The notes under the pieces are model-generated. The model was given only the letters and a program-made list of their open reading frames with translations, did no database searches and had not been told where the DNA came from. Below are positions 686 to 15,922 of a stretch of DNA of 15,956 bases, piece by piece. The stretch is taken from positions 1-15,956 of the IMG/VR virus record IMGVR_UViG_2778261418_000011. One strand, 5' to 3'. Source of the DNA: a virus. Taxonomy: Duplodnaviria > Heunggongvirae > Uroviricota > Caudoviricetes. The stretch's first letter is position 1. Every line of letters begins with the position of its first letter. Position numbers and translations under genes: made by a program.

Positions 686-3600
686 TGTATAATCCTCCAT
701 CCCGACGCGATGACTGCATAATTGACACAACCCTGCTGTCGATCAGATCCACCAGTCCCCTGGCTGAGCGCGCATCTATCTCGCCATTGCTCCCTTGATT
801 CTGAATGCTGATGTGATACACGGGAGAATAAACAAATCCACCGCCACCATTCACATTGCCAATGGCTCTGACCCCAAGAGAGCCGTCCGCTGCCCGTGTC
901 AGTGGCATGATAGCTTCAGGCCCGGCCTCGCCCATCAGCCCGGCACCTTTCGCAAAAGCAAAATACGTCGGTGTATCCACAATAGTGTTACTGTAAGCAC
1001 TCAGATTTGCCGATGTGTAAACACCACCTTTTGCGTTTGCCACCGCCCCCGAAATCCATCCGCCGACCGTACCAAGCCACCCTCCGGCACCGGAGAGTGA
1101 CTTCAGTCCGTTAACAATGGCCGCATTCATCAGAATTTTTGAAACTTCCCGGAGAACTGAACTCCCCCAGTTCCTCCACTCCACAACATTCCCGGCCAGT
1201 GCATCGGAAATATTTGATACCAACCCGTCCATCGTGGAAACGACAGCATCTGCCGCCTGTGAAGCATAATCGGTGGCACTGTCTGCCCAGTTGGTCAGTC
1301 CCTCCTGGAGTCCGGCATTCCAGTTATTACGTAAAGCATCGGCCTTTGCATAATAATCCTGCTGATCGCTGAGACGCTCTTCCAGATATTTTTTATTCAG
1401 TTCTTTCTCCTGTTTCCACAGGGCTTCTTCAATTTCTCCGGCCTGATACTGTCTCAGCAGCTCGTTATTTTTCTTCTCAAACGTCTGCCGGATACTCCAC
1501 ATTTCCTGGAGTCGTTCACGCATCCGTGAGCCTTCACCATATCCCAGCAACTGCGCTTCGTCAGATGCCCGGGCACTGGCATTACTGTCCGCCAGACTGC
1601 TCTCATACGCAGCAAGCTGCTCACGAATCTTTTTCTGGTCGATGAGTGCTGCATTCTGCAAAAGCGTTTTTTTCTGCGCTTCTGACAGGGTTGATAATTC
1701 GCCCTGACTGACCTGATATTTCATCTTAGCCAGTTCAGTATTCTGCCCTGCCAGTGCTATCTGTTCTTTTTGCTGTTTAATCAGCCGTTTATAAATATCT
1801 TCTGTTTTTTCCGCTTCGGTCTTTTTATGCGCTTTTGGTTTATTTGCCTGGTTATTTCGCCAGGCATCCAGTGAGTTATTGATATAATTCTGTCTGGCTG
1901 TCTGATACGCCTCTCCCACAAAGCCGAGATCATCCGCAGCATAACCCAGGCGGGCACGCTCACGGGCTTCCCCCTTCAGGCGGGACAGAGCCAGTTCGCG
2001 CTCGCTGTTATTCAGTGCGGTCTGCTGTTTATCATCCAGGGTTGCCTGTGGTAGCCGTAACGGTACATTCACCAGCCCCTGTCGCTGCTGAAGTAATTCA
2101 TTACCGAGCCCGAGAAGGCGATTAAACTCGGTATGCTGCCCATTCATGATCAACAGGGACTGATACGCTTTGTTTTGTTCCGCCGCCTGTTGACGGATCA
2201 ACGCCACCCGTCGTTCTTCCAGCCCGGCAAGCACATCCTGAATGGATTGCGCTTTGCCCTGCATTTGAGTGAGGCGAGACTGTTCAACTGCCAGTTGATT
2301 TGTTGCTTCTGCAAGCCCTTCTGTGACAGTTTTTACCGACGTCATGTGGTTAATCATAAAACCGTTATCGGTTGTCCAGCCCGGGTTTGCCAGCACATAC
2401 TGATAGCCAGCAATTTTTTCCTGTAAGGATTTAATCTTACTTTTCTGCTCGTCAATTAACCTGTTCTGCTCCTTCAGTGCCTGTCGCGTCTTTTCCTCAT
2501 TATCTGACGCTTCAGGAAGCGACATTGCCGACGTTTTCTGGCGAATTTCGTCGATTGTTGCGGCATACTGGCGTGCAGATTCTCTGGCCTGCTCCTGATT
2601 CTGATACATCATGTACCAGGCCGCAGCCCCCAGCATGACGAGTCCCGGCACACCACCAACCAGCCCCAGCGCGCCACTTAATAAACGACTCCCCACTGAC
2701 GTAACATTATTCAGCGTTGTCTGTGCCGCTGTTCTGGCCGCAATATTACGGGTAAGTGATGCCTGGGCAGCTGTCAGCTTCGCTTCTGCTGCGGCCTGCC
2801 TTTCGGTACCGCGAGCAGCAACAACCGCCTGTTGCGCACGATAAACCGCCGCACGCGCCCTGGCAGTTGCTATCTGTGTCCCCCGAAGTTGCGCTTCAGC
2901 AAGAGACACTTCGTTTCTGGCCGCAGTGATTAGCCCGGCAGTTGCAGAGCCAGCAGAAGATGCCATATTGCCAAAATATCGGGCTACCCCGACGGCAACC
3001 AGTGCACCGGCAGCGGTTGCCACGGTGTCAATATTGCCTGCAATACTATTCAGCACACCGGAGAGCGTCTTCGTCACTCCGCTTGCCTCGTTCGCACCAC
3101 CAACCCAGGCCATAAAGGCGTTTTCAACTTTGGTTGCAGAGGATGAAACCGTATCAGGCATTGCCGCATATTCATCACGTAATGCCCCAAGCTGACTAAT
3201 CAGTGCAGGAACAACCTTATCGGCGGTCAGTTTTCCGTTATCCGCCATGGCCTTCAGATCCTTACGGGCAACTCCCATTCCCGCAGCCAGCGCACGAATA
3301 ACACGATCGCCGTTCTCATTCACCGAGTTAAACTCTTCACCGCGCAGCACTCCCTGCGCCAGTGCCTGACTGAACTGCGTGATCACCGAACTGGCTTCTG
3401 CTGTACTGGCACCGGATAATTTCAGGCCCGTGGAGATCGCCTCAGTGACTTTCAGTACTTCCTCAGAACTGTAGCCATACTCCCGCATGGAAGCTGCAGA
3501 GCGGGCAAAAAGGCTGGCGTTATCAGAAAAAGCCGTCCCCGTTCTCTGGCTGATTGCCATTAATTCGCGTTGTGATGCCTGAAAATCATCACTGGACTGT

Positions 3601-3911
3601 GAGGCCTGCTTCAGACGGGCATTGACTGAATTCCACTCATCGGCGAGAGAAATAAGATGACCGGTAGCAAAAGCCCCGGCAAATGCCCCCGCCATGTTCA
3701 GTGCCGAAGATTTAGCTGTATTTATCTGATCCGTCACTTCTGCCAGTGCACGCCGCATTTCACGGGATGCAGCAGCGGACTGTCGGCTTCCATTCTGCAT
3801 GGTGCGGTAGTAATCCTGCCCCATACGCGAAGCCCGGGAGATCTCTGACTGAAATGACCGGGAGTTTGCCGAAATTTTAATAATCAGTTCACGTAATGTC
3901 GCCACACTCAT
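678..3911 (-). CDS. H: Tail tape measure protein (lambda gpH-like), 1077 aa
   Basis: Very long Ala/Gln/Glu-rich coiled-coil ORF with a central hydrophobic Gly/Ala segment and a C-terminus ending ...RRDGGLYSA, like lambda gpH (...RDGGLFS...). It lies between the G/T chaperone and M. The ATG at 3911 is only 1 nt from a GGAG; the GTG at 3905 has 7-nt spacing and may be the true start. Confidence 0.9.
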   Translation of the reverse strand: MSVATLRELIIKISANSRSFQSEISRASRMGQDYYRTMQNGSRQSAAASREMRRALAEVTDQINTAKSSALNMAGAFAGAFATGHLISLADEWNSVNARLKQASQSSDDFQASQRELMAISQRTGTAFSDNASLFARSAASMREYGYSSEEVLKVTEAISTGLKLSGASTAEASSVITQFSQALAQGVLRGEEFNSVNENGDRVIRALAAGMGVARKDLKAMADNGKLTADKVVPALISQLGALRDEYAAMPDTVSSSATKVENAFMAWVGGANEASGVTKTLSGVLNSIAGNIDTVATAAGALVAVGVARYFGNMASSAGSATAGLITAARNEVSLAEAQLRGTQIATARARAAVYRAQQAVVAARGTERQAAAEAKLTAAQASLTRNIAARTAAQTTLNNVTSVGSRLLSGALGLVGGVPGLVMLGAAAWYMMYQNQEQARESARQYAATIDEIRQKTSAMSLPEASDNEEKTRQALKEQNRLIDEQKSKIKSLQEKIAGYQYVLANPGWTTDNGFMINHMTSVKTVTEGLAEATNQLAVEQSRLTQMQGKAQSIQDVLAGLEERRVALIRQQAAEQNKAYQSLLIMNGQHTEFNRLLGLGNELLQQRQGLVNVPLRLPQATLDDKQQTALNNSERELALSRLKGEARERARLGYAADDLGFVGEAYQTARQNYINNSLDAWRNNQANKPKAHKKTEAEKTEDIYKRLIKQQKEQIALAGQNTELAKMKYQVSQGELSTLSEAQKKTLLQNAALIDQKKIREQLAAYESSLADSNASARASDEAQLLGYGEGSRMRERLQEMWSIRQTFEKKNNELLRQYQAGEIEEALWKQEKELNKKYLEERLSDQQDYYAKADALRNNWNAGLQEGLTNWADSATDYASQAADAVVSTMDGLVSNISDALAGNVVEWRNWGSSVLREVSKILMNAAIVNGLKSLSGAGGWLGTVGGWISGAVANAKGGVYTSANLSAYSNTIVDTPTYFAFAKGAGLMGEAGPEAIMPLTRAADGSLGVRAIGNVNGGGGFVYSPVYHISIQNQGSNGEIDARSARGLVDLIDSRVVSIMQSSRRDGGLYSA

Positions 3912-3921
3912 TCTCCGGACG

Positions 3922-3943
3922 AAAAAAAACCGCCGAAGCGGTT
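3922..3943 (-). terminator. Putative intrinsic terminator/attenuator between T and the tape measure gene
   Basis: Minus strand reads AACCGC-UUCG-GCGGUU followed by a U-run (plus-strand A8 at 3922-3929): a 6-bp stem with a UUCG tetraloop and U-tract, immediately upstream of the tape measure RBS. Confidence 0.35.
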
Positions 3944-3951
3944 ATGTTGAC

Positions 3952-4242
3952 TCACTGAGACACGGTTAAAAGCGCGTTTTCCAGCCCGGCAAATGGATCT
4001 GAGGCGCCTTCTGTCTGCTCCTGCTCCCACTGAAGAAGCACATCATTCAGTGGTACTTTAACCCCCTGCGCACCGTAAACAGCTGAAACAATCTGGGCAG
4101 CCCGGATATCAGCCCGTTCGTCCCCCAGCGGGCTGAACCTGTCAAATTCTGCCCACATCATGATTTCTGATGCGGACATTTCCCGGCGTAACTCTGACAA
4201 TGTGCGCCCCATCCTGAGCGCCAGCATCATCAGAAAACGCAT
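3952..4242 (-). CDS. T: Tail assembly protein T frame (C-terminal part of the G-T fusion made by a -1 frameshift)
   Basis: 96-aa ORF in the -1 frame relative to G, starting 12 nt after the G stop. This is the position and arrangement of lambda T; the slippery site is described below. Confidence 0.75.
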   Translation of the reverse strand: MRFLMMLALRMGRTLSELRREMSASEIMMWAEFDRFSPLGDERADIRAAQIVSAVYGAQGVKVPLNDVLLQWEQEQTEGASDPFAGLENALLTVSQ

Positions 4243-4253
4243 CCCCGGAAGTG

Positions 4254-4640
4254 CTACTTTTTTTTAACCTCTCCGGCATCACTGATCAGTTCCAGAGACT
4301 GGCGAAGAAGCCGGGCATGCACCGGGCCATACACGGCAATCACCTGTTCACGATCATCCTCTGAAAATACGGGTTGCAGCCCGGTATCACACAGAACATC
4401 AATGAACAGTTCAACGTCTGCCTCCAGATTTCGGCGGGCACGCTCTGCAACAGATGGCGATGTATCATCTTCCCTGGCTTTAACGATCTCCTGCCAGCGC
4501 AACCAGGCTTCTGCAGAAGGTTCCCGTAACACAACCGTTGCTCCTTCCCATTCAGGCACATCAACGGTTTTATGGCGAAACCCCGACATCGTTGCCAGTG
4601 CCAGATTACGGATATTTTTAGTCATCACATCCATCCTCAT
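4254..4640 (-). CDS. G: Tail assembly chaperone G
   Basis: Acidic ~125-aa ORF directly upstream of the tape measure and downstream of the major tail gene, ending ...GEVKKK on a slippery A-run. The TAATG overlap with the V stop supports the 4640 start; the ATG at 4625 has a better SD (GAGGA, 8-nt spacing). Confidence 0.8.
   Translation of the reverse strand: MRMDVMTKNIRNLALATMSGFRHKTVDVPEWEGATVVLREPSAEAWLRWQEIVKAREDDTSPSVAERARRNLEADVELFIDVLCDTGLQPVFSEDDREQVIAVYGPVHARLLRQSLELISDAGEVKKK
4257..4263 (-). other. Programmed -1 ribosomal frameshift site (slippery heptamer A AAA AAG)
   Basis: Minus-strand mRNA reads GTT AAA AAA AAG TAG. The heptamer A_AAA_AAG is in the zero frame at the last three codons of G, and a -1 slip continues as GTA GCA CTT CCG GGG ATG CGT..., which is the T frame. 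Confidence 0.75.
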
Positions 4641-5344
4641 TAACTGACGGTTACAGTGCAGGAAGTGGAGGTCACTTTGTTAACCGGGCTTGCTGAATCA
4701 GAAATCTCGCAGGTATACGCACCGGCATCACCGGATGCTGCTGATGCCTTACTGAACGTTGCCGCCGTCTGTCCGGAAACAGGAGAACCACCTTTCTTCC
4801 AGACATAAGAATAAGGCGGCACACCACCGGCAGCCTCAACCACCATTTCGAGTTTCGCTCCGGCAGAAACCTGCAGCGTGCTGTTTAAATCGACCTTCAC
4901 TTTCAGCGGTTCTGTCGTCAGCACAGGTTTACCTTTCAGGCGCAGGGAAAACGTTGCAGCCACAACACCATTGGTTCCTGCAGACCAGGTATGCTGACGC
5001 ACCTCTGCCATAAAGGTAAATCCGTTTCCTGACGGAAAAATAACTTTAAAGCCATACGTGGTGTCATTGTCATAGGCACTGCGCAACGCATTCTGGGCAG
5101 CATTGAGGTAAAAGTTGCCTGACATGGAAATCTCTGACGCGGCACCAAGACCGTTAATATTTTCCTGCTCAACAGAACACAGCGTGGTGACATCAATATC
5201 CTGCTTTTGTCCTGCGGTAAACTGCACCTCTTTGATTGTACAGCTCAGGCCAAGATAGCTGGCAGAATCCAGGGTTTCTGCTGTTACCGGTGCAGACGAA
5301 ATCATAATTTTCGTCAGTTGCGAACGCTCAAAATTAGAGGACAT
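4640..5344 (-). CDS. V: Major tail protein (lambda gpV-like) with C-terminal Ig-like domain
   Basis: 234-aa ORF in the V position. The C-terminal ~90 aa (..LKVKVDLNSTLQVSAGAKLEMVVEAAGGVPPYSYVWKKGG...YTCEISDSA...) looks like a bacterial Ig-like fold. RBS GGAG is 6 nt upstream of the ATG. Confidence 0.85.
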   Translation of the reverse strand: MSSNFERSQLTKIMISSAPVTAETLDSASYLGLSCTIKEVQFTAGQKQDIDVTTLCSVEQENINGLGAASEISMSGNFYLNAAQNALRSAYDNDTTYGFKVIFPSGNGFTFMAEVRQHTWSAGTNGVVAATFSLRLKGKPVLTTEPLKVKVDLNSTLQVSAGAKLEMVVEAAGGVPPYSYVWKKGGSPVSGQTAATFSKASAASGDAGAYTCEISDSASPVNKVTSTSCTVTVS

Positions 5345-5361
5345 ACTCGTCTCCTGAAAAT

Positions 5362-5382
5362 AAAAAAAACCGCCAGCGGCGG
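5362..5382 (-). terminator. Putative intrinsic terminator/attenuator upstream of the major tail gene
   Basis: Minus strand reads CCGCC-GCU-GGCGG followed by U8 (plus-strand A8 at 5362-5369), between the stop of the upstream gene (5405) and the V RBS. Confidence 0.35.
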
Positions 5383-5404
5383 GTGGGTAAAATCATTAAC
5401 GAAC

Positions 5405-5749
5405 TCAGGCTATTACCTGAAATTCAAGCGTGGCTCTGCTCAGACGGGATTCAGGATCATAACCCTGCGTTTTAGAAATAACGGAGGGTGCAAGTTCCCT
5501 CACCGCATCAAGCGCCTGTTCCCGGATATCATCTGCGTCATCAGGCACCGTTGCCCAGACATCGATCTGCACGGTAATTCTGGATTCAGCCTGACCATCA
5601 AGCACATCAGACGCCGTGTCAGACACCACAGAAAACACCAGCCACGGCGGAGATACCGCAGGTTTTCCCTCCGTCAGCGGGACCACATAAGGATAAACCT
5701 GTCCTCCGGCCAGTTGAGACAGCAGGGAATACAGTGTGGCTTCCCTCAT
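5405..5749 (-). CDS. Tail completion / tail terminator protein (lambda gpU position; family not recognised with certainty)
   Basis: 114-aa ORF between the gp10-like gene and the major tail gene, with an ATGA overlap to the upstream stop. Assignment rests on gene order; no obvious similarity to lambda U in my recollection. Confidence 0.55.
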   Translation of the reverse strand: MREATLYSLLSQLAGGQVYPYVVPLTEGKPAVSPPWLVFSVVSDTASDVLDGQAESRITVQIDVWATVPDDADDIREQALDAVRELAPSVISKTQGYDPESRLSRATLEFQVIA

Positions 5750-6195
5750 TTACTTAAGACCTCATCAATAGCCTGATTCATTCGCTGTATGGCAACCTGC
5801 GCCGCCAGCTCCTCTGTCGTATCGAAAGCCGGGCGAATGAATGGATGCGCGGGCATGTTTATCGTTCCCAGCTCCACAAAGCGCCAGTAAAACGCATTTC
5901 GGGGATCGCTGGCTTTCATGCTGTTATCACTGTTTCCGGTTCGCAGGTTCCGTCCGCGAATATGGATACCAGAAATAATTTCCCCCCGACGCTTTGAGCG
6001 CTGAGTCAGAACAACCACATTTTTCTTCAGTTTTCCGGTTCGCTCCGGCGCACGTTCAACAACCGCATCCCGCATAACTTCAGCACCGGCACGGGTGGCA
6101 TCGCGCAGCACCTTATTGTTTTCTGCCCTGCTGAGCGTCTCCAGATCCCGTGCAATATCCGCCAGACCTGAAAAATCAAGACTGAAATCCATCAC
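5746..6195 (-). CDS. HK97 gp10-family head-tail protein
   Basis: 149-aa ORF containing ...NMPAHPFIRPAFD..., which I recall as characteristic of the HK97 gp10 family. Sits in the head-tail joining block. Confidence 0.7.
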   Translation of the reverse strand: MMDFSLDFSGLADIARDLETLSRAENNKVLRDATRAGAEVMRDAVVERAPERTGKLKKNVVVLTQRSKRRGEIISGIHIRGRNLRTGNSDNSMKASDPRNAFYWRFVELGTINMPAHPFIRPAFDTTEELAAQVAIQRMNQAIDEVLSK

Positions 6196-6530
6196 ACATT
6201 CCCCTTCAGACTGCAGAGCATTTCAAGCCGGGTGGCGCGTGCATCCGGTATTGGTGGCCCTTCTATACCAAGAGTGACCCCTTTAAATGCACCGGTCAGC
6301 ACTTTCAGACGTGAAGTCGCTGTCACATCGCGCCGAAATCGCATCCAGACTCTGACCGTAGCCTGAGCGGTTTCTGCACCTCCTGATATTCTCTCCCTCC
6401 CGCTGATCCCCTTAACTTCTGCCCATACGGTTGCCCCCTCCGTCATTGTCTCCACCGGATGCCCTGACGGAGAACGGACGGTGGTGACATTCAGAATAGT
6501 TACGCGATCACGTAATCTGCCCGCCTGCAT
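6192..6530 (-). CDS. Head-tail adaptor / head closure protein
   Basis: 112-aa ORF downstream of the gp6-like connector, with a strong RBS (AGGAGG) 4-5 nt upstream of the ATG. Assignment by size and position in an HK97-type head module. Confidence 0.65.
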   Translation of the reverse strand: MQAGRLRDRVTILNVTTVRSPSGHPVETMTEGATVWAEVKGISGRERISGGAETAQATVRVWMRFRRDVTATSRLKVLTGAFKGVTLGIEGPPIPDARATRLEMLCSLKGNV

Positions 6531-6538
6531 GGTTCCTC

Positions 6539-6856
6539 CTACAAAGGAATAAAACGATAAGGCTCCAGCAGAGAAGAAAAACCAAACGGGACTGGTGCCT
6601 TGCTGACATCTGAGGAATTTTCCCGGTTTTCGTACCAGTGTCCGACCAGCAACATGAGCGCCAGCAAAACATCATCAGCTATAAGCACCCCGTCAGGATC
6701 ACCTTCCGGCACCGTCTCCTCATAAAGCTTACGGTTGATAAAATTTTCTGCCTTGCGGCAGGCAGCCCGGAAATACAGCATCAGTAACTCATCATCAGTT
6801 GCATCATCTGTATCAATACGGCACTGCGCCCTGAGTTTTTCCACTATTGCTGCCAT
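6539..6856 (-). CDS. Head-tail connector protein (gp6-like)
   Basis: Track ORF 6539..6901 would overlap the capsid stop. The ATG at 6856 (MAAIVEKLRAQ...) has AGGAG with 6-nt spacing and is the likely start. Acidic ~105-aa protein immediately after the capsid gene. Confidence 0.65.
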   Translation of the reverse strand: MAAIVEKLRAQCRIDTDDATDDELLMLYFRAACRKAENFINRKLYEETVPEGDPDGVLIADDVLLALMLLVGHWYENRENSSDVSKAPVPFGFSSLLEPYRFIPL

Positions 6857-6900
6857 CAGAAACTCCTGCCCGCAACACTGTGCGGGCATAAAAAACCGCA

Positions 6901-8127
6901 TTACGCAGCGGCTTTCTGGCGGGTTGCGGCCCCAATTTTCATCAGCTTAATCGCCTGAGAATCCACCAGCATACCGCCGGTTCGCTTGGTGGTGTAAAAA
7001 CCCACAAACGGTTTATTGGTGTACGGATCGCGCAGGATACGGGTACCGATGCGATCAACGATGGTATAGCCACGTTTGAAGTTACCAAACGCAATGGCTT
7101 TTGCATCGGCAGCAATATCCGGCATCTGTTCATTCTCAACGATGCCATACCCTGCCAGAGAAGAAGGCTGACCCAGCTCAATACCCGGACGCCACAGATA
7201 ATTTCCGTCGTTATCCTTCAGCAGACGAATGGCAAACAGGCTGCTGTTGTTCATCATAAACTTCGCGCCGCTGCGGTGCGCCTTGCGCAGGGTGTAAATC
7301 AGTTTAATGATCGCATCGGCAGTCACGCCGGAAGCCGCACCGGAAGCAATGTGCTGAAGTTTGCCAAACGCACGGGTCTTGTCATCTTCATCGGTGGACT
7401 CGTAAGCCAGAAAACCTTTTGGTTTTTTGCTGCCGTCGCCACTGGTAAAGGCAATTTCTTCCTGCTCGGCAAATTCCAGCGCCAGCTCACTGTTGATCCA
7501 GTCTTCCACATTGAAGAAAGCATCATCGAGCATTTTCTGGGTGGCCTGCGGGTTGCCGTAGATTTCCCCCATAAAGGGTTCAATCAGACCCAGTTTTGAG
7601 GTGGCGGTTTCCGGACGAGCATCCGTTTCCCCCACCCATCCGGACGTTGTGCCGCCCAGATTCACCAGTTTTTTATAATCCGAGCCACCGAGGGTGATCA
7701 CAGTGGCTTCCTGGCGCATCACCACCTCATCTTTCAGCAGCGTCAGGATGGTACGATCCAGTTCTTCCGGAATGGCATAACCACCATCTTCATCATTACC
7801 TACCTGAAGCGCCTTACGTTCAAGTTCACGCAGACCGTCTTCACGCCCCTTGCGCATAAATCCGATAAACGCTTCTTTGTGTTCACCGGCAACTTTATTT
7901 TGCGTGCCGCCTGCCGGACGCTTGATGTCTGCCAGCTCTTTTTCCAGGTCGCTTTTCAGGTTCTCCAGCTCGCTGATTTGCCCGTTCAGGCTTTCCACCT
8001 GTTCGGCCAGCTTGCCTTTTTCCTGTTCGATCGCGTCAATGCGCTTGTCGTTTTTTGCCTTAAAATCGTCAAACTTCTGCTGCAAATCCTGCGCGACCTG
8101 TTCAACGTCTTTAATATCAACAGCCAT
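6901..8127 (-). CDS. Major capsid protein, HK97 family, with N-terminal coiled-coil delta (scaffolding) domain
   Basis: 408-aa ORF whose N-terminal ~100 aa is a heptad-rich coiled coil (..QKFDDFKAKNDKRIDAIEQEKGKLAEQVESLNGQISELENLKSDLEKELADIK..) followed by a capsid body. It sits directly after a prohead protease with no separate scaffold gene, as in HK97. Confidence 0.9.
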   Translation of the reverse strand: MAVDIKDVEQVAQDLQQKFDDFKAKNDKRIDAIEQEKGKLAEQVESLNGQISELENLKSDLEKELADIKRPAGGTQNKVAGEHKEAFIGFMRKGREDGLRELERKALQVGNDEDGGYAIPEELDRTILTLLKDEVVMRQEATVITLGGSDYKKLVNLGGTTSGWVGETDARPETATSKLGLIEPFMGEIYGNPQATQKMLDDAFFNVEDWINSELALEFAEQEEIAFTSGDGSKKPKGFLAYESTDEDDKTRAFGKLQHIASGAASGVTADAIIKLIYTLRKAHRSGAKFMMNNSSLFAIRLLKDNDGNYLWRPGIELGQPSSLAGYGIVENEQMPDIAADAKAIAFGNFKRGYTIVDRIGTRILRDPYTNKPFVGFYTTKRTGGMLVDSQAIKLMKIGAATRQKAAA

Positions 8128-8140
8128 TATTTACTCCTGA

Positions 8141-8791
8141 TTAAAATTTAAGATTTTTCAGTGCATTCAGTGCGGCATCCACATCCTCAGCATCACGCAG
8201 GGATAAAGCGCCATATCCCCCGGCCATGAATGCTTTGGCCTGGGTTCGCGAGAGTCCAACATCGCGCAAGACCCGCTCAATAATTTTCTGATCAGGGATC
8301 TCCCCACGCGCCAGCGCATTTTTCACATCGCTGATGCGTGCTTCATCATTGGAAGGAAACGTCACCAGACTGACCTCCCACAGGTCGATCTCTTTCAGCA
8401 GGAATACCCCTTTTTCCCGGTCGTACTCCCAGTCTTTCAGGATGTAGCCAATAGAAAGGCCGGTTAAAGAACCGGCCTTCATATGGGCATGTGCACGTTT
8501 TGCCAGGGGATCATCATCAATGAGTAATCGTCCCCTGACATAAAGCCCGACATCATCTTCTTTCATTTCGGTGTACACACCGATGGGCTCATCCATGCGG
8601 TGCTGCCAGAGCAACGCAGGCAGCGCCTTTTTTTCGCTCCATTTCTGGAGTGTTGTGGTAAAGGCTCCGGGGACCACCACATCATCGTGGCTGTCCTTAA
8701 CACCAAAAACAGAACCGTAACCTTCAAATTCCCCGGAATCACTGACGGATTTCAGGTTCAGCGGTATATCAAGACGCTGTTTTGTCTGCAT
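8141..8791 (-). CDS. Prohead protease, HK97 family
   Basis: Track ORF 8141..8821 lies between portal and capsid. The likely start is the ATG at 8791 (MQTKQRL...), with GGAGAG 5 nt upstream; it overlaps the portal 3' end. Confidence 0.85.
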   Translation of the reverse strand: MQTKQRLDIPLNLKSVSDSGEFEGYGSVFGVKDSHDDVVVPGAFTTTLQKWSEKKALPALLWQHRMDEPIGVYTEMKEDDVGLYVRGRLLIDDDPLAKRAHAHMKAGSLTGLSIGYILKDWEYDREKGVFLLKEIDLWEVSLVTFPSNDEARISDVKNALARGEIPDQKIIERVLRDVGLSRTQAKAFMAGGYGALSLRDAEDVDAALNALKNLKF

Positions 8792-10010
8792 CTCCACTCT
8801 CCTTTTTCTTACCGTTGTCATCGCCAGCAGAGGGACTGGTGGTCATGTTCATCGGTGTCAGATACACATCACCGCCCGGTCGGGGATTCATATCTTCCAG
8901 ATCACGGCAGTCATTAGGGGAATAAATCCCCCAGTTGATCCCCGTGGCATACGCTTCAAAGCGGGATTTCATGTCGCCACGCAACAATGCTCCGGCATTA
9001 AACTTGGCGTAAAATTTTCCCTGCTTGCTCTCCCTGACCAGCCCTGTATTGATCCGCTGCTCAATACGGGTCAGATACGGCACAAGGGAATAGTTAATGA
9101 AACCAAGCCCCAGCTCTTCAATATTGTTGAAGGTGGCGCGATCGGTGTTCTGCACCATATGCAGCGGCACGCGGAACAGGCGACAGATTTCTTCCAGCTG
9201 AAACTTGCGGGTTTCCAGGAACTGGCTGTCCTCGGCATTCAGTGCCACCGTTTTCCAGTCCAGCCCCATTTCCAGAATCATCGGACGATGAGAGTTTCCC
9301 AGCCCGACATGCCGTTCCTCAAAATCCTTTTTGATACGCGCATAAGCCTGGTCAGAAAGTTGTTGATCCGTACGCAACACACCGGATGTTACCGCGCCAT
9401 TGCCAAACAATCTGGCACCATGCTCCTCGGTTGCCGCTGCCAGTGAAATGGCCTCGCGCGCATATGCAATGGGATTCAGACCGACAAGTCCATCCAGCGT
9501 CAGGGTACGCACATGCCAGATTTCATTCTGGGTCAGCACATCCACGGAACCATCCGGAAACGTCACCTGATAAACCGGCTGCCACTGGCTGTTCAGCTTC
9601 GGTTCCACACAGCCCGGATCTATCGGAAGAAGCTCCACCACTTCCCCCAGTGCCTTTACCTTGTAGGCGTAAAAATTACCCCGCAGACACAGGCAGACGA
9701 TAACCAGTTCCCAGAATTCCTGCGGCGTCATGTAGCCATTGGGTTTTGCCGAAATCAGCTTATGCAGCCGTTCATCCACCGCCCGTGTTTTAAGGGTGCC
9801 GCTGATTTTGTAGAGACTGCAGGGCAGCATACCAACAGACTCAGCCAGCACCCTGACGCAGGAATAGACCGCCGTCAGCCGCATGGCCCGCTGGCTGCTG
9901 ATCCGCTTTCCGGTATAGGTGTCGTATGACAACCCCAGCTCTTCCGCAAGCATCCCGGGCGTTGTGACGGGGGTGTTATTTTTGCGTTGAAAAAGCCCCT
10001 GGAAAAACAT
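8769..10010 (-). CDS. Portal protein, HK97 family
   Basis: 413-aa ORF directly downstream of large terminase and upstream of the protease, with an acidic C-terminus. RBS GGAGGTGA precedes the ATG. Confidence 0.9.
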   Translation of the reverse strand: MFFQGLFQRKNNTPVTTPGMLAEELGLSYDTYTGKRISSQRAMRLTAVYSCVRVLAESVGMLPCSLYKISGTLKTRAVDERLHKLISAKPNGYMTPQEFWELVIVCLCLRGNFYAYKVKALGEVVELLPIDPGCVEPKLNSQWQPVYQVTFPDGSVDVLTQNEIWHVRTLTLDGLVGLNPIAYAREAISLAAATEEHGARLFGNGAVTSGVLRTDQQLSDQAYARIKKDFEERHVGLGNSHRPMILEMGLDWKTVALNAEDSQFLETRKFQLEEICRLFRVPLHMVQNTDRATFNNIEELGLGFINYSLVPYLTRIEQRINTGLVRESKQGKFYAKFNAGALLRGDMKSRFEAYATGINWGIYSPNDCRDLEDMNPRPGGDVYLTPMNMTTSPSAGDDNGKKKESGDADKTAS

Positions 10011-10192
10011 TACTCACCTCCGGAGGCGACCCGGTGACCGCGATCGAGATAACGCGCAACCAGCCACGACCAGCACAGACACAGCGCCCCGACAACAACA
10101 AAACCTGCCGGGGGATAAATCAGCCAGGCGCCATACGCCAGCAAAAGCGCCCCCAGCACGCCCACCAGTGGCGTGAGAATTATCAGAAACAT
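10010..10192 (-). CDS. Small hypothetical membrane protein (60 aa, two predicted transmembrane helices)
   Basis: [63 protein letters not shown] fills the 193-bp gap between terminase and portal. GAGGG lies 5 nt upstream of its ATG, and its TAA overlaps the portal ATG (TAATG). Confidence 0.45.
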
Positions 10193-10203
10193 AATGCCCT
10201 CGG

Positions 10204-11961
10204 TTAAAGCGAGCGAATACCAACGCTGACCAGATGCTCAGACAGATCCGGCTCCGGTTCACCGCCATTGACCAGCATCCGGCTCATTGCTGTAAACATC
10301 GCAACAGGACCGTCGATTTTGGCTTCAGGCGTGGATTTGTTCGGGAAGATATTGTCGTTTTTGTCCGGTTTTACCGTAACGTTAGACATCATCCAGTTCA
10401 TGACCGGGTGATTGCTGTGGTGAAAACGCCCGGCATAGACCAGTGATTCCGTTTCCTTCATAGCCTCTGACAGATTGCGGACCGTCTGCGGAACTTCCAC
10501 CAGCGGTATCCCTTCTTCAGCCAGAGCCAGACTGAACTGCATTGCACTCCACGGGTCAAATCCCAGCTCCCTCAGGTTTTCACCACCAATCCATTCCAGT
10601 AAGTCACTTTTTATCTGAGCATGATCGATAACATCACCATCCGTCAGGATGAGCTTATCCATCTCCGCCCATTTCCGGTAAAGTTCTGCCTGCTGCCGCG
10701 AGCACCGCTCCAGCCGTCCTTCCGGGAGCCAGAATTTAAAATCAGCATGAACATGTCCGTTATCGGTTCGCCAGAGTTTTGCCGCCGCACAGATATCAAT
10801 CTTATGAGCAAGGTCGACGCCGACCCACATGGGATACGTTTTAAGCTCATGTCGTGGGGCAATATATTCGCATTTCTCCCACTTAATCATGTCCATCCAG
10901 GCAGACTCTGCTGTTACCCACACATTCATGTGTTTGGTAAAAAAATTCACCCGCGCAGAGACCTGTTCTTTCGCTTTTTTCGCCAGACGACGCAGATCAT
11001 CCCAGCGTTTACAGATGCCCAAGCCGGGATTCGCTTTCTGCCAGACCGTTTCATCAAACGGATCATCTCCCTCATCGAGCGTGTAAATAATCGCAAAGTA
11101 GGAATCATCTTTTACCGCGCCCTCCACGTCGCTGTTATAGCCTCGCAATACCTTGATGGCGTAATCGCGTTGCTCGTAACAAATCCCTTCCTTGTTAAAG
11201 CCCGCCGTGGTGATACCAAATAACAGGGACTGCAGACGGGCACCGGTTGCCGTTTCCAGAACGTCCCACACGTCGCGGGTTTTATGTGCATGCAGCTCAT
11301 CAATAATGGCGCAGTGGATGTTCAGACCGTCCAGGTTGTTTGCATCCGAGGAAAGCGGTTCAAATTTTGATGCGCTCTGCTCCTGGTAAATCGCCAGCTT
11401 GTTGAAATCAAACAATCGCCCGAGTGTCGACCGGGCTTTTCTGACCATATTTTTGGCGTCTTCAAACACAATTCTGGCCTGGTCACGCGTGGTTGCGGCT
11501 GAATACACCTCAGCACCGCCTTCACCATCTGCCCCCGTCATATACAGGCCGATACCCGATGACAGGGTTGATTTTGCGTTTTTACGGGCGACTTCGTTGT
11601 ACGCCGTACGGAACCGGCGCACCATCACCGGACGTCCGCTGCCATCGCTGCGCATGACAACTTCCCCGGTCTCTTCATTAACCAGCGGAATGACAAAACC
11701 AAAAATATTAATGAGGATAAATACATGCCAGTCCATCAGTTCAATGGGCTGGCCTGCCAGCGCCCCTTTTACATGGGGCACAAATTTGTAGAAATTCAGG
11801 ATGTGCTGCGCACGGGGTTCACTGAAATAAATCCCCCGCTCTTCGCCGTACTTCAGATCATCAAGAAAACGCTGGCAGGCCAGACGGACAAATTCGCCAG
11901 CGACAATTTCTCCTGCAACAACACGTTCGGCGTAGCGGATCCCGTCAGCCACTTTTGCCAT
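10204..11961 (-). CDS. Terminase large subunit
   Basis: 585-aa ORF in the canonical position between small terminase and portal, with an ATGA overlap to the small-subunit stop. Length and composition fit an ATPase-plus-nuclease large terminase. Confidence 0.9.
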
Positions 11962-12443
11962 CAGTCTCTCGCTTTTAAAAGTTCCGCCAGCGGATCAACA
12001 TCATCCGGTCCGGCGGTATTTACTTTCGCCCGGCTTGCCGGTGACATACCAAACTCTGCAAGCATCGCCCGGATCCGCTTCCAGGCATCCGCTTTCATCG
12101 CAGCAGCCGGGTGTGCCTTAATCAGCACATCACCGTTCTGCGTTTCCGTGCGGTAGGTATAACCCTCAACATCGAGTATTTCGCAGTGATGCCGGTATTC
12201 GGTGTAGGCTTCCACCAGCAACTCGAGTGCACGCGCATCAAGCTGAGAAATGATCCCTTCCGCATTCAGTTCTTCCGCCATTCGCCTGAACCAGTACTTC
12301 CCCTGCGCCCCTAAATGTTGCGGAATTTTAGGGAGACCTTTTTCGTCCTTTTTAGCGGTTTTTTTGGGGTCTTTAACGGGGCGCTTTGATGGGTTGCCTC
12401 GTATCAAATGCAGGCGTGGCGGGGTTTTCGGGGGTCCTGACAT
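11961..12443 (-). CDS. Terminase small subunit
   Basis: 160-aa ORF with a basic N-terminus (..KTPPRLHLIRGNPSKRPVKDPKKTAKKDEKG..) immediately upstream of and overlapping the large terminase. Resembles the P27-type small terminase as I recall it. Confidence 0.75.
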   Translation of the reverse strand: MSGPPKTPPRLHLIRGNPSKRPVKDPKKTAKKDEKGLPKIPQHLGAQGKYWFRRMAEELNAEGIISQLDARALELLVEAYTEYRHHCEILDVEGYTYRTETQNGDVLIKAHPAAAMKADAWKRIRAMLAEFGMSPASRAKVNTAGPDDVDPLAELLKARD

Positions 12444-12590
12444 AATCGGTTTTACCTATCAATCGTTTAATCGCATTCCCAAAAAAAAGTTTTCGAACCT
12501 GCGGCGATGCGAGGAAAGGTCAGGCGGCGGTACTGAGCAGCCAGGGCTGCAGGGATTTTACCCGCCCCTCCCCACAAGTGAGAATAATTA

Positions 12591-12941
12591 TCACCTGATT
12601 CGTTCGCGCGCTGTTTTTGCTTTGTGGCAGGGCCAGCACAGACTCTGCAGGTTGCTGTCTGCATCTGTTCCGCCATGTGCTTTCGGGATGATGTGGTCGA
12701 CAGTTTTCGCCTCGCGCACCACACCGACACGCAGACACAACTGACACAGACCTTTATCGCGCTTCAGAATACGGGCTCGAATCACCGTCCATTTTGAGCC
12801 ATAGCCACGCTGGTGGCGGCTCAGTCCGCGCTGGTGCTGCACCCAGCCTTCACCCCGATGTTTATCGCAGTAGCCAGAGCTGTCTGTTGTTGTGCCTGCG
12901 CAACCTCGCTTACGGCATGCGCGGGGGATTCGTGATGGCAT
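12591..12941 (-). CDS. HNH endonuclease (phage packaging-associated)
   Basis: C-terminal motif ...VDHIIPKAHGGTDADSNLQSLCWPCHKAKT plus an N-terminal Cys cluster. The likely start is the ATG at 12941 (MPSRIP...), with AGGAG at 6-nt spacing. Sits upstream of the terminase genes as in HK97-like phages. Confidence 0.85.
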   Translation of the reverse strand: MPSRIPRACRKRGCAGTTTDSSGYCDKHRGEGWVQHQRGLSRHQRGYGSKWTVIRARILKRDKGLCQLCLRVGVVREAKTVDHIIPKAHGGTDADSNLQSLCWPCHKAKTARERIR

Positions 12942-13023
12942 TGGAATCTCCTTAATACCGGCATTATCGCAGCCCCTCACTGAAGGGCTGCTGTAATGCC
13001 TGTTACTCAGTAACAACTGCGCC

Positions 13024-13299
13024 TTACGGTAATTTCATGAAGGCAAATACCGGACAGCCCGGATGACGAGCATCTTCTGTTGCTTCCAGCATTGATTCAC
13101 CAAACCACTCCGTCGTGGCACGACCATCAGCAGCTTTGTAGTGGAGCAAGTACTGGTTTTCGCCATCCGCATACTGAGCGCGAGCTTTAACCTCACCCCA
13201 TTCATCACTGATGCGTACTTCCACCAGTTGTGACAGTTCAAACTTAAACGGAATAGACGCGACACCAACTAAAATCGGTTTATTTTCTGTTTTTTCCAT
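13024..13299 (-). CDS. Hypothetical protein (~92 aa), function unknown
   Basis: Track ORF 13024..13350. The only SD (AGGAG) precedes the ATG ATG pair at 13302/13299, so the true product is probably MEKTENKPILVGVASIPFKFELSQLVEVRISDEWGEVKARAQYADGENQYLLHYKAADGRATTEWFGESMLEATEDARHPGCPVFAFMKLP. No family recognised. Confidence 0.5.
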   Translation of the reverse strand: MEKTENKPILVGVASIPFKFELSQLVEVRISDEWGEVKARAQYADGENQYLLHYKAADGRATTEWFGESMLEATEDARHPGCPVFAFMKLP

Positions 13300-13473
13300 C
13301 ATCGTCTCCTGATATCGAAGCCCGTCGCCGCACCGGGCGCTGATCAACATTTGAGTATTCGCGGCGAAAGAAAGAATTTATTTTATTGAATGACCGCAAA
13401 CACAGAATTTCATGCTTTCCGGGCGCTGACGCATCCTTCATTTTTCAGCAAAATATTCTGCTCTTACGGGCGA

Positions 13474-13656
13474 TCAGTTCTGCAGACACTGCCGAACACC
13501 GTCAACAATTTCGCAGACCTGAGAAGCCGTATCGAAAAGCTGGCGCGCCTTATCCAGGCTGACGCATCCCACCAATAAAAAAGGCACCAGTATCGCTACC
13601 AGTGCCCATTTCGCCGCCGTTCGCGGCATTCTGTGTGTCCAGTGTTTTCGCGCCAT
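13474..13656 (-). CDS. Small putative lipoprotein (60 aa; lipobox LVGC, ~30-aa mature peptide with 3 Cys)
   Basis: MARKHWTHRMPRTAAKWALVAILVPFLLVGCVSLDKARQLFDTASQVCEIVDGVRQCLQN has a basic n-region, a hydrophobic h-region and an L-V-G-C lipobox. Its start lies 1 nt after the stop of the upstream 37-aa ORF. Confidence 0.45.
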   Translation of the reverse strand: MARKHWTHRMPRTAAKWALVAILVPFLLVGCVSLDKARQLFDTASQVCEIVDGVRQCLQN

Positions 13657-13657
13657 A

Positions 13658-13771
13658 TCACCACCAACGCACAGCCCAAATCAGAACAGCGACCGCCACA
13701 AGGCGAATTGCAAAGGCCGCAGCCCTTGTCAAATCAAGGCTCGCGGGAGTTTCCATTTCAATACCTTTCAT
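13658..13771 (-). CDS. Small hydrophobic peptide (37 aa, C-terminal transmembrane segment)
   Basis: My own translation of an ORF below the track's size cut-off: MKGIEMETPASLDLTRAAAFAIRLVAVAVLIWAVRWW. GAGG lies 9 nt upstream of the ATG. Positions checked codon by codon. Confidence 0.25.
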   Translation of the reverse strand: MKGIEMETPASLDLTRAAAFAIRLVAVAVLIWAVRWW

Positions 13772-13863
13772 AATGGACAACCTCAAAAAGAATCTTTTAT
13801 ACTTTCCCACGAGGATTTTCTCCCTACTCACTAATCACAATTTCCCCTTTGACGTGAAAACTA

Positions 13864-13896
13864 AAAACCCCGGACTGTTCCCCCAGCCGGGGTTTT
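13864..13896. terminator. Bidirectional intrinsic terminator downstream of the endolysin
   Basis: Perfect 10-bp stem AAAACCCCGG / CCGGGGTTTT (13864-13873 and 13887-13896) with a 13-nt loop. A/T-rich flanks on both sides give a U-tract in either orientation. Begins 8 nt after the endolysin stop. Confidence 0.55.
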
Positions 13897-13903
13897 GTTT
13901 TAC

Positions 13904-14287
13904 TTATCGCTTCAGCTGAAAGTGAGGTCCGTCTTTCAGCGTTTTCCAGTCCCCGCCCCATTCGATAGCGATCCCCAGCTCTGCGGCAGCCTGCTTAAAT
14001 GCCTGTGCGATTTTCTCGTACAGAGGCCACTCCCATGACACCTGGCTGCCGATGTAGGCCACAACATCCACCGCATCACCGGTCAGGTGGCGGCTGTTCA
14101 TGGTCTGGCTTTTCCCTTCCGCAACCAGCTGTTTCTGGCGATACTTACTGCGCAGGCCTTCCGTAATACCGAAATCAACCTCCGTCAGCTCCAGCGCACG
14201 GCGAACTACAGCAACCAGCTGTGGTTTGACACCCTCCAGATTTTTTTCACTGCGACGGCTGAATCTGAATTTACCCGGCATATTCAC
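13904..14287 (-). CDS. Endolysin, peptidase M15 family (L-alanyl-D-glutamate peptidase type), no signal-anchor
   Basis: 127-aa ORF with the metal-ligand pattern ...SRHLTGDAVDV... and ...DGPHFQL, typical of M15 zinc peptidase endolysins as I recall. Hydrophilic N-terminus. ATGA overlap with the upstream holin-like gene. Confidence 0.8.
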   Translation of the reverse strand: MNMPGKFRFSRRSEKNLEGVKPQLVAVVRRALELTEVDFGITEGLRSKYRQKQLVAEGKSQTMNSRHLTGDAVDVVAYIGSQVSWEWPLYEKIAQAFKQAAAELGIAIEWGGDWKTLKDGPHFQLKR

Positions 14288-14559
14288 CTCAACAATGGAA
14301 AGATTTTTGTGACGTTCCCGCGTGCGCGTATCACCAGCACGCAGAACAGCAGGTTAAAAAACACTTCCAGCCAGCCCGTTGCTAACGGGCGACCACACAG
14401 ATAGCTGAGGGGCGCAAAGGCATACAGCAGCATCAGCAGCCAGGCCAGCCATGACATCAGCGGTTTATGTCTGGAATCACGGCGACGATAAAAAAAGAGC
14501 GTCAGCACGATAACCGTGCATAACGCCACATTCAGCAATCCGGGAAGGTTACTTAACAT
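14284..14559 (-). CDS. Holin-like membrane protein B (91 aa, about three transmembrane helices); possible holin or antiholin
   Basis: Track ORF 14284..14613. The likely start is the ATG at 14559 (MLSNLPGLLNVALCTVIVLTLFFY...), with GGAGGAGG at 5-nt spacing. It lies directly upstream of the endolysin. Confidence 0.55.
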   Translation of the reverse strand: MLSNLPGLLNVALCTVIVLTLFFYRRRDSRHKPLMSWLAWLLMLLYAFAPLSYLCGRPLATGWLEVFFNLLFCVLVIRARGNVTKIFPLLR

Positions 14560-14941
14560 TGCCGCCTCCTCCACCCCGCAGGCGGGAAAACAGGACGGAC
14601 ACCAGCGATGCAATATCCTGTTGGTGGATAAACGACAGAATCTTTACCGACACCACCGATACCAGCACCGCACACAGTGCATCCGCCGATGTACCGTCAT
14701 AACCTGTTTTTGCTGCAATCCAGGCTGACAGCACGCGCGCTCCCAGCACGCCGACAATGAACGACACCAGAAAATGTGCCGCCACCCGCCAGGCTGAAAG
14801 CGCCTGCGGCATCGTTGCCACAAACAACGCTCCGGCGAACGCCCCAAACACAATCCCGAAATCCGTCCCGGTAAACAGTCCGAATACCGTCGCCCCGCCG
14901 AGCGCAGCGGCTGTACCAGAACCGGATAAGGGTTCAGACAT
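14549..14941 (-). CDS. Holin-like membrane protein A (130 aa, several Gly/Ala-rich transmembrane helices)
   Basis: First gene of the lysis cassette, with GGAG 8 nt upstream of the ATG. Its Gly-rich C-terminus (RLRGGGGGNVK) is encoded by the SD of the next gene. Confidence 0.6.
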   Translation of the reverse strand: MSEPLSGSGTAAALGGATVFGLFTGTDFGIVFGAFAGALFVATMPQALSAWRVAAHFLVSFIVGVLGARVLSAWIAAKTGYDGTSADALCAVLVSVVSVKILSFIHQQDIASLVSVLFSRLRGGGGGNVK

Positions 14942-15183
14942 ACTTTTTCTCCTGTAAAGAAAAAAGGGCCACCAGCAGCCCGCAAAAAAACGCCCACCAA
15001 AGGCACCCGCAGATGCCTTTGGTGTGGAGTTATTTGATGTGCGCCGGTCGTGGCGCGAGGAAGTGAAATAAGACTTACCTGAAATTAAGGTTAATCTTAT
15101 GGTTTAAACCATTTTTAATGCTTAGTAATATGAACTCGTCCCCAGAAGGGGCCAATACTTATTCTTCTTCACGGACTTTGTCC

Positions 15184-15215
15184 CGCGGCGTTAATCCGAC
15201 AGCCGCGCTTTTTTT
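15184..15215 (+). terminator. Plus-strand-oriented terminator-like hairpin
   Basis: CGCGGC (15184-15189), 12-nt loop, GCCGCG (15202-15207), then C and T7 (15209-15215). Confidence 0.4.
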
Positions 15216-15250
15216 GCGCCATATTCATCGCTGACTTATATGGCATTGCC

Positions 15251-15286
15251 ACACGGACATTATCAGTGTCCGTGTTTTCTTTTTTT
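15251..15286 (+). terminator. Plus-strand-oriented intrinsic terminator
   Basis: Perfect 9-bp stem ACACGGACA / TGTCCGTGT with a 7-nt loop, followed by TTTCTTTTTTT. Confidence 0.55.
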
Positions 15287-15297
15287 GAATTCAGAAT

Positions 15298-15324
15298 AAA
15301 AAAAACCGCCCAATGGAGGCGGTT
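15298..15324 (-). terminator. Minus-strand intrinsic terminator between the tRNA array and the lysis cassette
   Basis: Minus strand reads AACCGCC-UCCAUUG-GGCGGUU followed by U8 (plus-strand A8 at 15298-15305). Confidence 0.6.
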
Positions 15325-15688
15325 GGTCAATGCATGAGATCAATCATTTTTATTGTAATAGAAATCGAGGTGTCGGGTGCCTCCCGAAATATCCATCCCT
15401 ACAACAGATATTGTGATTCCCCGTTAAACCACTATATAAACCACCCTCGCACTGAGGAACACCTCTGCGGTGCTGTTTACAACACCAGAATGATGCTTCA
15501 CCGACCCTGCCAGGAAATACAAAATCTCCACCGATAATGCATCATTCTGCTGCCGTAAAAATTCAGCACTGAGGCTACACCCGACCTCAAATCATAGCCA
15601 GAGAACAGAATACCATTTAAACACAATCCGCTCCCACGTAATAAAAAATACGCCAGTGCTGTAATACAATAAGGCTTATTACAAATGT

Positions 15689-15763
<75 letters not shown>

Positions 15764-15766
15764 ATA

Positions 15767-15842
<76 letters not shown>

Positions 15843-15844
15843 AC

Positions 15845-15921: not shown

Positions 15922-15922
15922 T

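Follow-up and report, generated by a model that had tools for sequence, protein, structure and literature searches.

A conserved two-helix membrane-protein gene between the terminase and portal genes of HK97/P27-type prophages

The stretch of DNA considered here, referred to below as the window, comprises 15,956 nucleotides from a virus of the class Caudoviricetes (positions 1 to 15,956 of IMG/VR record IMGVR_UViG_2778261418_000011) and contains part of an HK97/P27-type prophage. At the junction between its genes for the large terminase subunit (TerL) and the portal protein, the terminase stop codon TAA occupies positions 10206-10204 and the portal ATG positions 10010-10008, and the 193 bp between them (10011-10203) hold only one open reading frame (ORF), which is the subject of this report. 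This small ORF of 60 codons is separated from the terminase gene by an 11-nt gap and overlaps the portal gene by 1 nt (Table 1). A first-pass annotation, made from the letters of the DNA, had described it as a 60-residue ORF filling the 193-bp gap, with two hydrophobic helices, its own Shine-Dalgarno (SD) sequence and a TAATG overlap with the portal start, and this description is confirmed by the sequence, by hydropathy and by AlphaFold2. The same annotation had regarded a membrane protein in the head-assembly block as unusual and possibly a moron, and these two suggestions are taken up below.

The junction was compared across 98 homologous loci, drawn from 4 phage records, 14 species genomes and 80 viral contigs. 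The small ORF is intact in 97 of the 98, where it encodes 53 distinct proteins, all of 52-64 amino acids. The sole disrupted copy (L018) is a second copy in Shigella flexneri SFBU0723, at about position 4060, and it has lost one nucleotide from the C5 run of the Tyr-Pro-Pro codons, which results in a frameshift. Absence or frame disruption in close relatives, which had been named as part of the outcome that would speak against the gene, amounts to one frameshift among 98 loci. The ratio of nonsynonymous to synonymous differences (pN/pS, by the Nei-Gojobori method) is 0.33 for codons 1-47 and 0.78 for codons 48-60, which encode the tail; when 50 distinct 183-nt alleles are pooled, the annotated frame gives 0.30 and the alternative frames 1.00 and 2.15. 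Single divergent pairs of alleles give Fisher p values from 4e-7 to 7e-5, with p=0.024 for the closest pair, and the entropy at the three codon positions of the membrane core is 0.45, 0.24, and 0.89. Judged from these comparisons, the small ORF is a real gene whose peptide is under purifying selection, far beyond what a chance ORF would display, and on the same grounds it is evidently translated. Its GC content of 0.60, against 0.51-0.54 in its neighbors, is raised because of its Gly, Ala, Leu, Val, and Pro codons, and its GC content at third codon positions (GC3), 0.64, lies next to the 0.62 of the portal gene.

The signals at both ends of the gene are conserved as well. A GAGG is kept at the place of the ORF's own SD in relatives with either of two TerL types. 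At the downstream end, a one-nucleotide overlap (TAATG, TAGTG, or TGATG) occurs at all distinct junctions except for one variant found at three loci (L058, L060, and L061), and a G-rich SD lies 6-8 nt before the portal start, within the final codons of the small ORF, at 27 of 27 distinct overlapping junctions. The conserved C-terminal Gly-Gly-[Glu/Asp/Lys] of the protein is best explained by dual coding, because these codons are at the same time the portal SD. We infer from the conserved overlap and SD placement that termination on the small ORF is coupled to initiation on the portal gene. A predicted RNA hairpin in which the portal SD is paired could enforce such coupling; its minimum free energy in the window is -19 kcal/mol (z = -0.71), and in 12 of 14 divergent junctions the SD is paired at a probability of at least 0.8. 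However, composition-matched shuffles pair it almost as often, and the hairpin is suggestive only.

The encoded protein is almost entirely hydrophobic. Its Kyte-Doolittle hydropathy, in 15-residue windows, ranges from 1.1 to 2.6 over residues 1-50 with a dip at the YPPAG turn, and AlphaFold2 places helices at residues 2-25 and 27-57 with a mean confidence score (pLDDT) of 75, so that the transmembrane prediction proposed as a check likewise yields two helices. G14, G21, P28, and G35, spaced exactly seven residues apart, are invariant in close and distant relatives, and A29 and G30 are conserved at 90% or more even among distant members, within a family consensus of G-A-x-L-x-S-Y-G-A-W-x-I-Y-x-P-A-G-[FY]-I-V-x-G. 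Among 213 family members, lysine and arginine together average 0.85 per protein at the N-terminus, 0.06 in the turn and 1.76 in the C-terminal tail. By the positive-inside rule, this charge distribution indicates that both ends are cytoplasmic (N-in/C-in) and that the turn is periplasmic. Hydropathy, structure prediction and charge distribution thus point to a two-helix hairpin in the inner membrane. In four family members (P0160, P0167, P0206, and P0215), the hairpin occurs as a natural tandem duplication with four helices and 102-122 amino acids; these duplicated forms hint that the single hairpin acts as a dimer or higher oligomer.

Table 1. Positions of the small ORF, its signals and protein segments, and neighboring head genes in the window.
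Feature	Position	Strand	Remarks
Small membrane-protein gene	10010..10192	-	60 codons plus TAA; PHROG 502 member
SD of the small ORF, GAGGG	10197..10201	-	3 nt past the TerL stop; 4 nt ahead of the ORF's ATG
Transmembrane helix 1, residues 2-25 (predicted)	10118..10189	-	From hydropathy and AlphaFold2; family-invariant G14 and G21
Tight turn Y-P-P-A-G, residues 26-30	10103..10117	-	Predicted periplasmic; family signature SYGAWxIYxPAG[FY]
Transmembrane helix 2, residues 31-47 (predicted)	10052..10102	-	Invariant G35; LCLxWSW motif of the enterobacterial branch
Short basic tail, residues 48-60	10013..10051	-	Predicted cytoplasmic; weakly constrained except for the final Gly-Gly codons
Portal SD, GGAGG	10017..10021	-	Dual coding with codons Gly58-Gly59 of the small ORF
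Stop/start overlap, TAATG	10008..10012	-	Final A of the small ORF's TAA (10012-10010) is also the first letter of the portal ATG
Predicted RNA hairpin	9995..10027	-	Portal SD GGAGG pairs with portal codons 2-4 (UUUCC); stop/start in the loop
TerL, upstream neighbor	10204..11961	-	585 amino acids; PF03354 and PF20441; phrog_9
Portal, HK97 family, downstream neighbor	8769..10010	-	413 amino acids; PF04860, E=8e-107; phrog_12
TerS	Upstream of TerL	-	PF05119
gp6-like connector and head completion protein	Encoded in the window	-	PF05135 and PF05521

The protein belongs to a family that has already been catalogued. It matches phrog_502, labeled "membrane protein," with E=3.8e-25 and 88 bits, residues 1-54 aligning with positions 3-56 of the 58-position profile, and it shares the traits of PHROG 502 members, namely a length of about 55-65 amino acids, two hydrophobic helices, a YxPAG turn and a place between TerL and an HK97-type portal. 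The distant relatives P0253, P0212, and P0234 match the same profile at 1e-10 to 5e-12. Searches in Pfam, NCBIfam, PADLOC, and PDB sequences gave no meaningful match for the protein, and a tblastn search with the distant member P0253 gave none among sequenced phages. The window protein is 98% identical to one known from 987 contigs. The matches of a word-indexed search form 162 clusters at 90% identity, in Escherichia, Salmonella, Shigella, Citrobacter, Klebsiella, Enterobacter, Yersinia, Hafnia, Plesiomonas, and Lelliottia, and 414 representatives at 50% identity, with few exceptions 47-90 amino acids long, emerge from an exhaustive profile search. Furthermore, a 601-bp region around the junction matches 1113 of 5426 complete E. 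coli genomes, about a fifth. The small ORF is thus an ordinary, near-identical copy of a known family member, and its novelty is low because it belongs to that catalogued family.

Homologues occupy the same slot in phiP27, SfI, SfII, SfIV, ST64B (Sb3), 118970_sal3, and Klebsiella prophages, as well as in Yersinia YeP1-3 and PY54 and in Burkholderia phiE125 (gp3); in SfII, ST64B, YeP1, PY54, and phiE125, the hairpin gene was read directly between TerL and the portal gene. Between the window protein and phiP27, SfII_03, ST64B Sb3, and phiE125 gp3 there is no difference in kind, as all have the same length, hairpin and slot. Existing labels vary from "putative integral membrane protein" (phiP27, SfII_03) through "hypothetical" and "head-tail joining protein W" to none. 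The label of head-tail joining protein W, used in ON470580, ON470584, ON470603, and PQ793804, is a positional misannotation, and the homologue is unannotated in AJ564013 (PY54) at 2295-2492 and in KC814930 (SfIV) at 2304-2483. Given its annotation in phiP27, SfI/SfII, ST64B, YeP1-3, and phiE125 and its 414 clusters, a membrane-protein gene in this head block can no longer be called unusual.

The gene is linked to the portal rather than to the terminase. Loci of the SfII/ST64B group share only about 35% identity with the window at the TerL C-terminus, but 77-80% in the hairpin and 83% in the portal. Since the hairpin is conserved where TerL has been swapped, the hairpin gene travels with the portal and head module. 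Among six distant members, all six lie immediately upstream of the next gene, which Pfam identifies as Phage_portal in four, and TerL is identified by Pfam upstream in three; on the short contigs of P0242 and P0181, the flanking genes are of compatible size and carry no Pfam data. Their junctions comprise a one-nucleotide overlap in three cases, a 4-nt overlap in one and short gaps of 8 and 25 nt in two, and the gene order persists even where an S49 protease replaces S78. The small ORF is therefore a fixed syntenic part of a head-module lineage and not an odd insertion.

Mosaic joints are also visible at the junction. Sliding nucleotide identity places joints of one class at the terminase stop codon and those of another at about codon 36 of the small ORF, whose first 110 nt are shared by all loci as an island of 83-95% identity. 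Loci L001, L066, and L084, compared over window positions 10080-10210, show two unrelated TerL types (about 35% identity over the C-terminal 200 residues) joined to the same small ORF and portal. The island comprises the final TerL codons (IRSL-stop) and the ~110 nt at the start of the small ORF, with mosaic joints flanking it, and may serve to link the terminase module to the head module during recombination.

The first-pass annotation had assumed that terminase and portal genes are normally adjacent, and this holds in part. Among 21 diverse phages sampled for a PF04860 portal homologous to that of the window, the two genes are adjacent, or separated by a short gap without an annotated gene, in 10 (WBeta, Burkholderia E175, Proteus Pm34, Acinetobacter fLi-Aba03, Rhizobium 16-3, Vibrio 3.058.O, Sebastisaurus, Sitara, phi2958PVL, and Labrenzia V1). 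In five others a two-helix ORF lies between them and the rest have other inserts, while lambda-type modules have gpW in this slot. Four phages of the sample carry other cargo or small non-membrane ORFs. In Streptococcus phage Javan108 (L101), a MerR-family regulator lies in the junction at 1463-2188, and in Acutalibacteraceae phage NatCom_991 (L122), two small ORFs at 787-1418 resemble an antitoxin/toxin pair. Moraxella Mcat22 has a methyltransferase fragment and another ORF and Mycobacterium Kevin1 a small ORF; the small slot ORFs of these two phages are not membrane proteins. Such unrelated cargo indicates that the TerL-portal junction tolerates insertions.

The five two-helix ORFs of the sample encode 54-69 amino acids and overlap or abut the portal start: orf3 of Pseudomonas phage D3 and its counterpart in Vibrio pVa-1 (phrog_4810), that of Vibrio K260 (phrog_7105), ORF4 of Lactococcus phage BK5-T (phrog_1142), and Clostridium PhiS63 gp3. 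The annotated pVa1_0062 of pVa-1 (L129, 1199-1405), given as 49 amino acids, is probably 68 amino acids long, with an ATG that overlaps the TerL stop; the extended product contains two hydrophobic helices and gives a match to the D3 orf3 family. D3 orf3, the 68-residue pVa-1 ORF and K260_0002 resemble the window protein in having 54-68 amino acids, two helices and overlaps with both the TerL stop and the portal start, but D3 orf3 has no significant similarity to the window family, and an hhalign comparison of the two gave a probability of 2%, leaving homology unsupported. BK5-T ORF4, a member of DUF1056 (PF06341), likewise has 69 amino acids and two hydrophobic helices, overlaps both TerL and an HK97-type portal, and ends in GGD, where the window family ends in GG[E/D/K]. 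However, it comes from a phage of a Gram-positive host and scores 121 bits to PF06341, a family for which the window protein and six relatives give no match at E≤1, and hhalign of the window family alignment against it returned 1.1%, so that homology is unsupported here too. Weak cross-matches do connect phrog_502, 7105, 4810, and 1142; the K260 protein matches phrog_502 at 2e-4 and phrog_4810 at 0.05, which could reflect deep homology or a shared transmembrane composition. In either case, a two-helix hairpin recurs at the TerL-portal junction in phages of Gram-negative and Gram-positive hosts, by deep divergence or by convergence. The portal N-terminus that follows the hairpin gene is commonly F-rich (MFFxG), yet the same is seen in portals without the gene and it does not discriminate between them.

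Transcription signals of the gene's own were not found. Promoter-like sites around the small ORF number 2 against 3.6 expected, and terminator-like sites 5 against 4.3 expected, and none of either kind frames the ORF. The terminator annotated inside SfII_03 and the terminator-like matches of the window were rejected as occurring at chance frequency; a genuine terminator inside the small ORF is implausible because the head genes would be cut off. With no promoter or terminator of its own, the gene is most simply expressed with the late operon, as had been supposed. The further suggestion of a moron is not upheld, since the ORF lacks the promoter/terminator pair and is present in all 98 loci rather than variably. 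Its nucleotide composition speaks less clearly, with an overall GC content above that of the neighbors and a GC3 close to that of the portal gene. The testable hallmarks of a moron in the Hendrix/Juhala sense, an own transcription unit and variable presence, are thus not seen here. PHROGs does place phrog_502 in the category "moron, auxiliary metabolic gene and host takeover," but this is simply where generic membrane proteins get filed.

What the hairpin does can be proposed with less assurance. The reading that we tentatively prefer, while giving it somewhat less than even weight, is that the protein is a late, portal-coupled membrane accessory of head morphogenesis. The gene would be transcribed with the late packaging and head operon, and ribosomes finishing the hairpin ORF would start the portal, because the portal SD consists of the hairpin's last two glycine codons; given late transcription and translational coupling to the portal, the gene would behave as a fixed accessory of the head module and not as a moron. 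The product would insert in the inner membrane with both ends cytoplasmic, may oligomerize there through the small-residue heptad of G14, G21, P28, and G35, and would act during late infection on head morphogenesis at the membrane, its most plausible role being to bring portal synthesis or the nucleation of the portal ring to the inner membrane. The outcome might be comparable to two known cases. In T4, gp40 and YidC take part in assembly of the portal on the inner membrane (PMC4493910). In SPP1, open procapsid precursors are found at the membrane only if the portal is produced, and how they associate with it is stated to be unknown (PMC13212656). T4 gp40 is put forward as a functional parallel only, as a phage membrane factor that aids portal-started head assembly (PMC4493910). 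PHROG and Pfam scans of the hairpin found no head-assembly family, and no direct comparison with gp40 was made. Nor does T4 gene 40 lie beside the portal gene.

Head assembly is usually treated as cytoplasmic, while the work on SPP1 and T4 puts portal-initiated assembly at the membrane. No anchor is known outside T4, and the hairpin family, a tiny two-helix protein kept directly upstream of the portal and usually coupled to it across hundreds of diverged lineages, offers a cheap and directly testable candidate.

Several observations weigh against a role in head morphogenesis. The conserved residues lie within the membrane or at the periplasmic turn, and the only cytoplasmic part in this phage, the 13-residue tail, is nearly neutral (pN/pS 0.78) and therefore fits poorly with direct binding to a cytoplasmic portal. 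The gene is absent from WBeta, Pm34 (HK97-like), E175, fLi-Aba03, Sitara, Sebastisaurus, and Labrenzia V1, all of which have PF04860 portals, and the capsid-forming island EcCIEDL933 also forms HK97-type capsids without a membrane hairpin gene; a hairpin is therefore not generally required for portal function, and such capsids can form without one. The slot also accepts unrelated cargo (the MerR regulator, the toxin-antitoxin-like pair and the methyltransferase fragment), and the short ORFs of SPP1 in the same slot are dispensable (PMC6316719). Positional conservation could in part reflect tight operon packing instead of function. Furthermore, the hairpin has no match in PDB, Pfam, NCBIfam, or PADLOC, and literature searches on this family, DUF1056 and D3 orf3 returned no functional paper or experiment.

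EcCIEDL933 was located in E. coli EDL933 (L121) at 10329-24760, where it comprises capsid, protease, portal, connectors, HNH, a 60-residue ORF, TerS, TerL, and a 93-residue ORF. Its "hypothetical gene 1792," mutation of which severely reduced transfer, was considered as a homologue of the hairpin gene and rejected; the small hypothetical genes of 60 and 93 amino acids encode hydrophilic proteins and lie outside the TerL-portal slot, and this lead was dropped.

A possibility nearly as likely as the preferred one is that the hairpin is a late membrane effector unrelated to capsid assembly, which might set the timing of lysis, block superinfection or DNA re-entry, or regulate a host membrane protein, and which would be kept before the portal only because the junction tolerates cargo and the operon is tightly packed. 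The size of the protein, its predicted N-in/C-in two-helix topology and its charged C-terminal tail resemble, as a matter of general knowledge, class II holins and T4 Imm. Its conserved residues, intramembrane or periplasmic, are as expected for a membrane target, and an effector would also suit the unrelated cargo found at this junction elsewhere, the many phages of the same portal family without a hairpin gene, and the category in which PHROGs files the family. However, the hairpin has no holin, exclusion or defense-related hidden Markov model (HMM) match in Pfam, PHROG, or PADLOC, two holins (PF16931 and PF05449) are already present beside the M15 endolysin, and no promoter of its own would allow expression from the prophage. 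The position is, moreover, conserved between phages that have diverged widely, and the slot has been filled by at least four separate two-helix families, which is hard to account for as chance cargo.

The comparison with named effectors gives a similar picture. Class II holins and pinholins share with the hairpin two helices, an N-in/C-in arrangement and a charged C-terminus, in the hairpin by prediction, but the hairpin lacks a holin match in Pfam and lies outside the lysis cassette. HK97 gp15 and T4 Imm are small phage-encoded inner-membrane exclusion proteins. The hairpin shows no HMM similarity to these, has no own promoter or terminator and is not variably present; PADLOC gave no match to an exclusion or defense family, and the PHROG matches are limited to phrog_502 and weak unknowns. 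If the hairpin is nevertheless a lysis or exclusion factor, it would be among the most widespread uncharacterized small membrane proteins of temperate enterobacterial phages.

Returning to the membrane accessory of head morphogenesis, a stronger form of this proposal, which we consider unlikely, is that the hairpin and its look-alikes are the missing membrane receptor of HK97-type portals. The hairpin would then be inserted co-translationally just before the coupled portal is made and would anchor the portal ring to the inner membrane or nucleate it there. If this were true, it would provide for one portal per procapsid start and explain the portal-dependent, membrane-bound procapsid precursors.

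It is quite improbable that the small ORF is essentially a translated leader which sets the level of the portal by termination-reinitiation and by opening of the SD hairpin, with the peptide being incidental. The portal is required at low copy number, the stop/start overlap and the portal SD within the last codons are conserved, and structure prediction pairs the SD in 12 of the 14 divergent junctions, all of which a leader would account for. However, the peptide is under purifying selection, with invariant residues and a motif maintained across hundreds of diverged clusters, and the RNA hairpin does not outperform composition-matched shuffles; the peptide may well have a function alongside coupling.

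That the hairpin is the counterpart of the lambda head-tail joining protein gpW is very improbable. Lambda-type modules do have this small gene between TerL and the portal, and the label is in use in the four records named above, but gpW is a soluble head-completion protein whereas the small ORF encodes an almost wholly hydrophobic, predicted membrane hairpin without similarity to it. In addition, no gpW family is found among the Pfam or PHROG matches, and the window already has a gp6-like connector and a head completion protein; the gpW label on the homologues is wrong. Finally, a chance, untranslated ORF in an intergenic spacer, as its short length and lack of annotation in PY54 and SfIV might suggest, is hardly conceivable given 97 intact copies in 98 loci, a frame-specific pN/pS of 0.30, a conserved SD and a steady length of 52-64 amino acids.

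As for the surroundings of the hairpin gene, every gene of the window lies on the minus strand, and their order is that of an HK97/P27-type prophage. Three tRNA genes are followed by two holin genes, the M15 endolysin gene with a small lipoprotein-like ORF, an HNH endonuclease gene and TerS; TerS is followed by TerL, the small ORF, the portal gene, an S78 protease gene and the gene for an HK97-fold capsid protein; and the capsid gene is followed by those for the gp6-like connector, the head completion protein, the tail tube and the tape measure. The tRNA genes, at 15689-15921 (minus strand), are Gly-tcc, Thr-tgt, and Lys-ttt in tandem, upstream of the lysis cassette. The cassette itself (13474-14941, minus strand) contains two distinct holin families beside an M15_4 endolysin, namely Phage_holin_8 (PF16931, 130 amino acids) and Phage_holin_3_7 (PF05449, 109 amino acids), the genes of which overlap, and it includes the 60-residue lipoprotein-like ORF with its LVGC motif. 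The HNH endonuclease gene lies just before TerS; the positions given for the cassette and this gene together are 13474-14941 and 12591-13016 on the minus strand.

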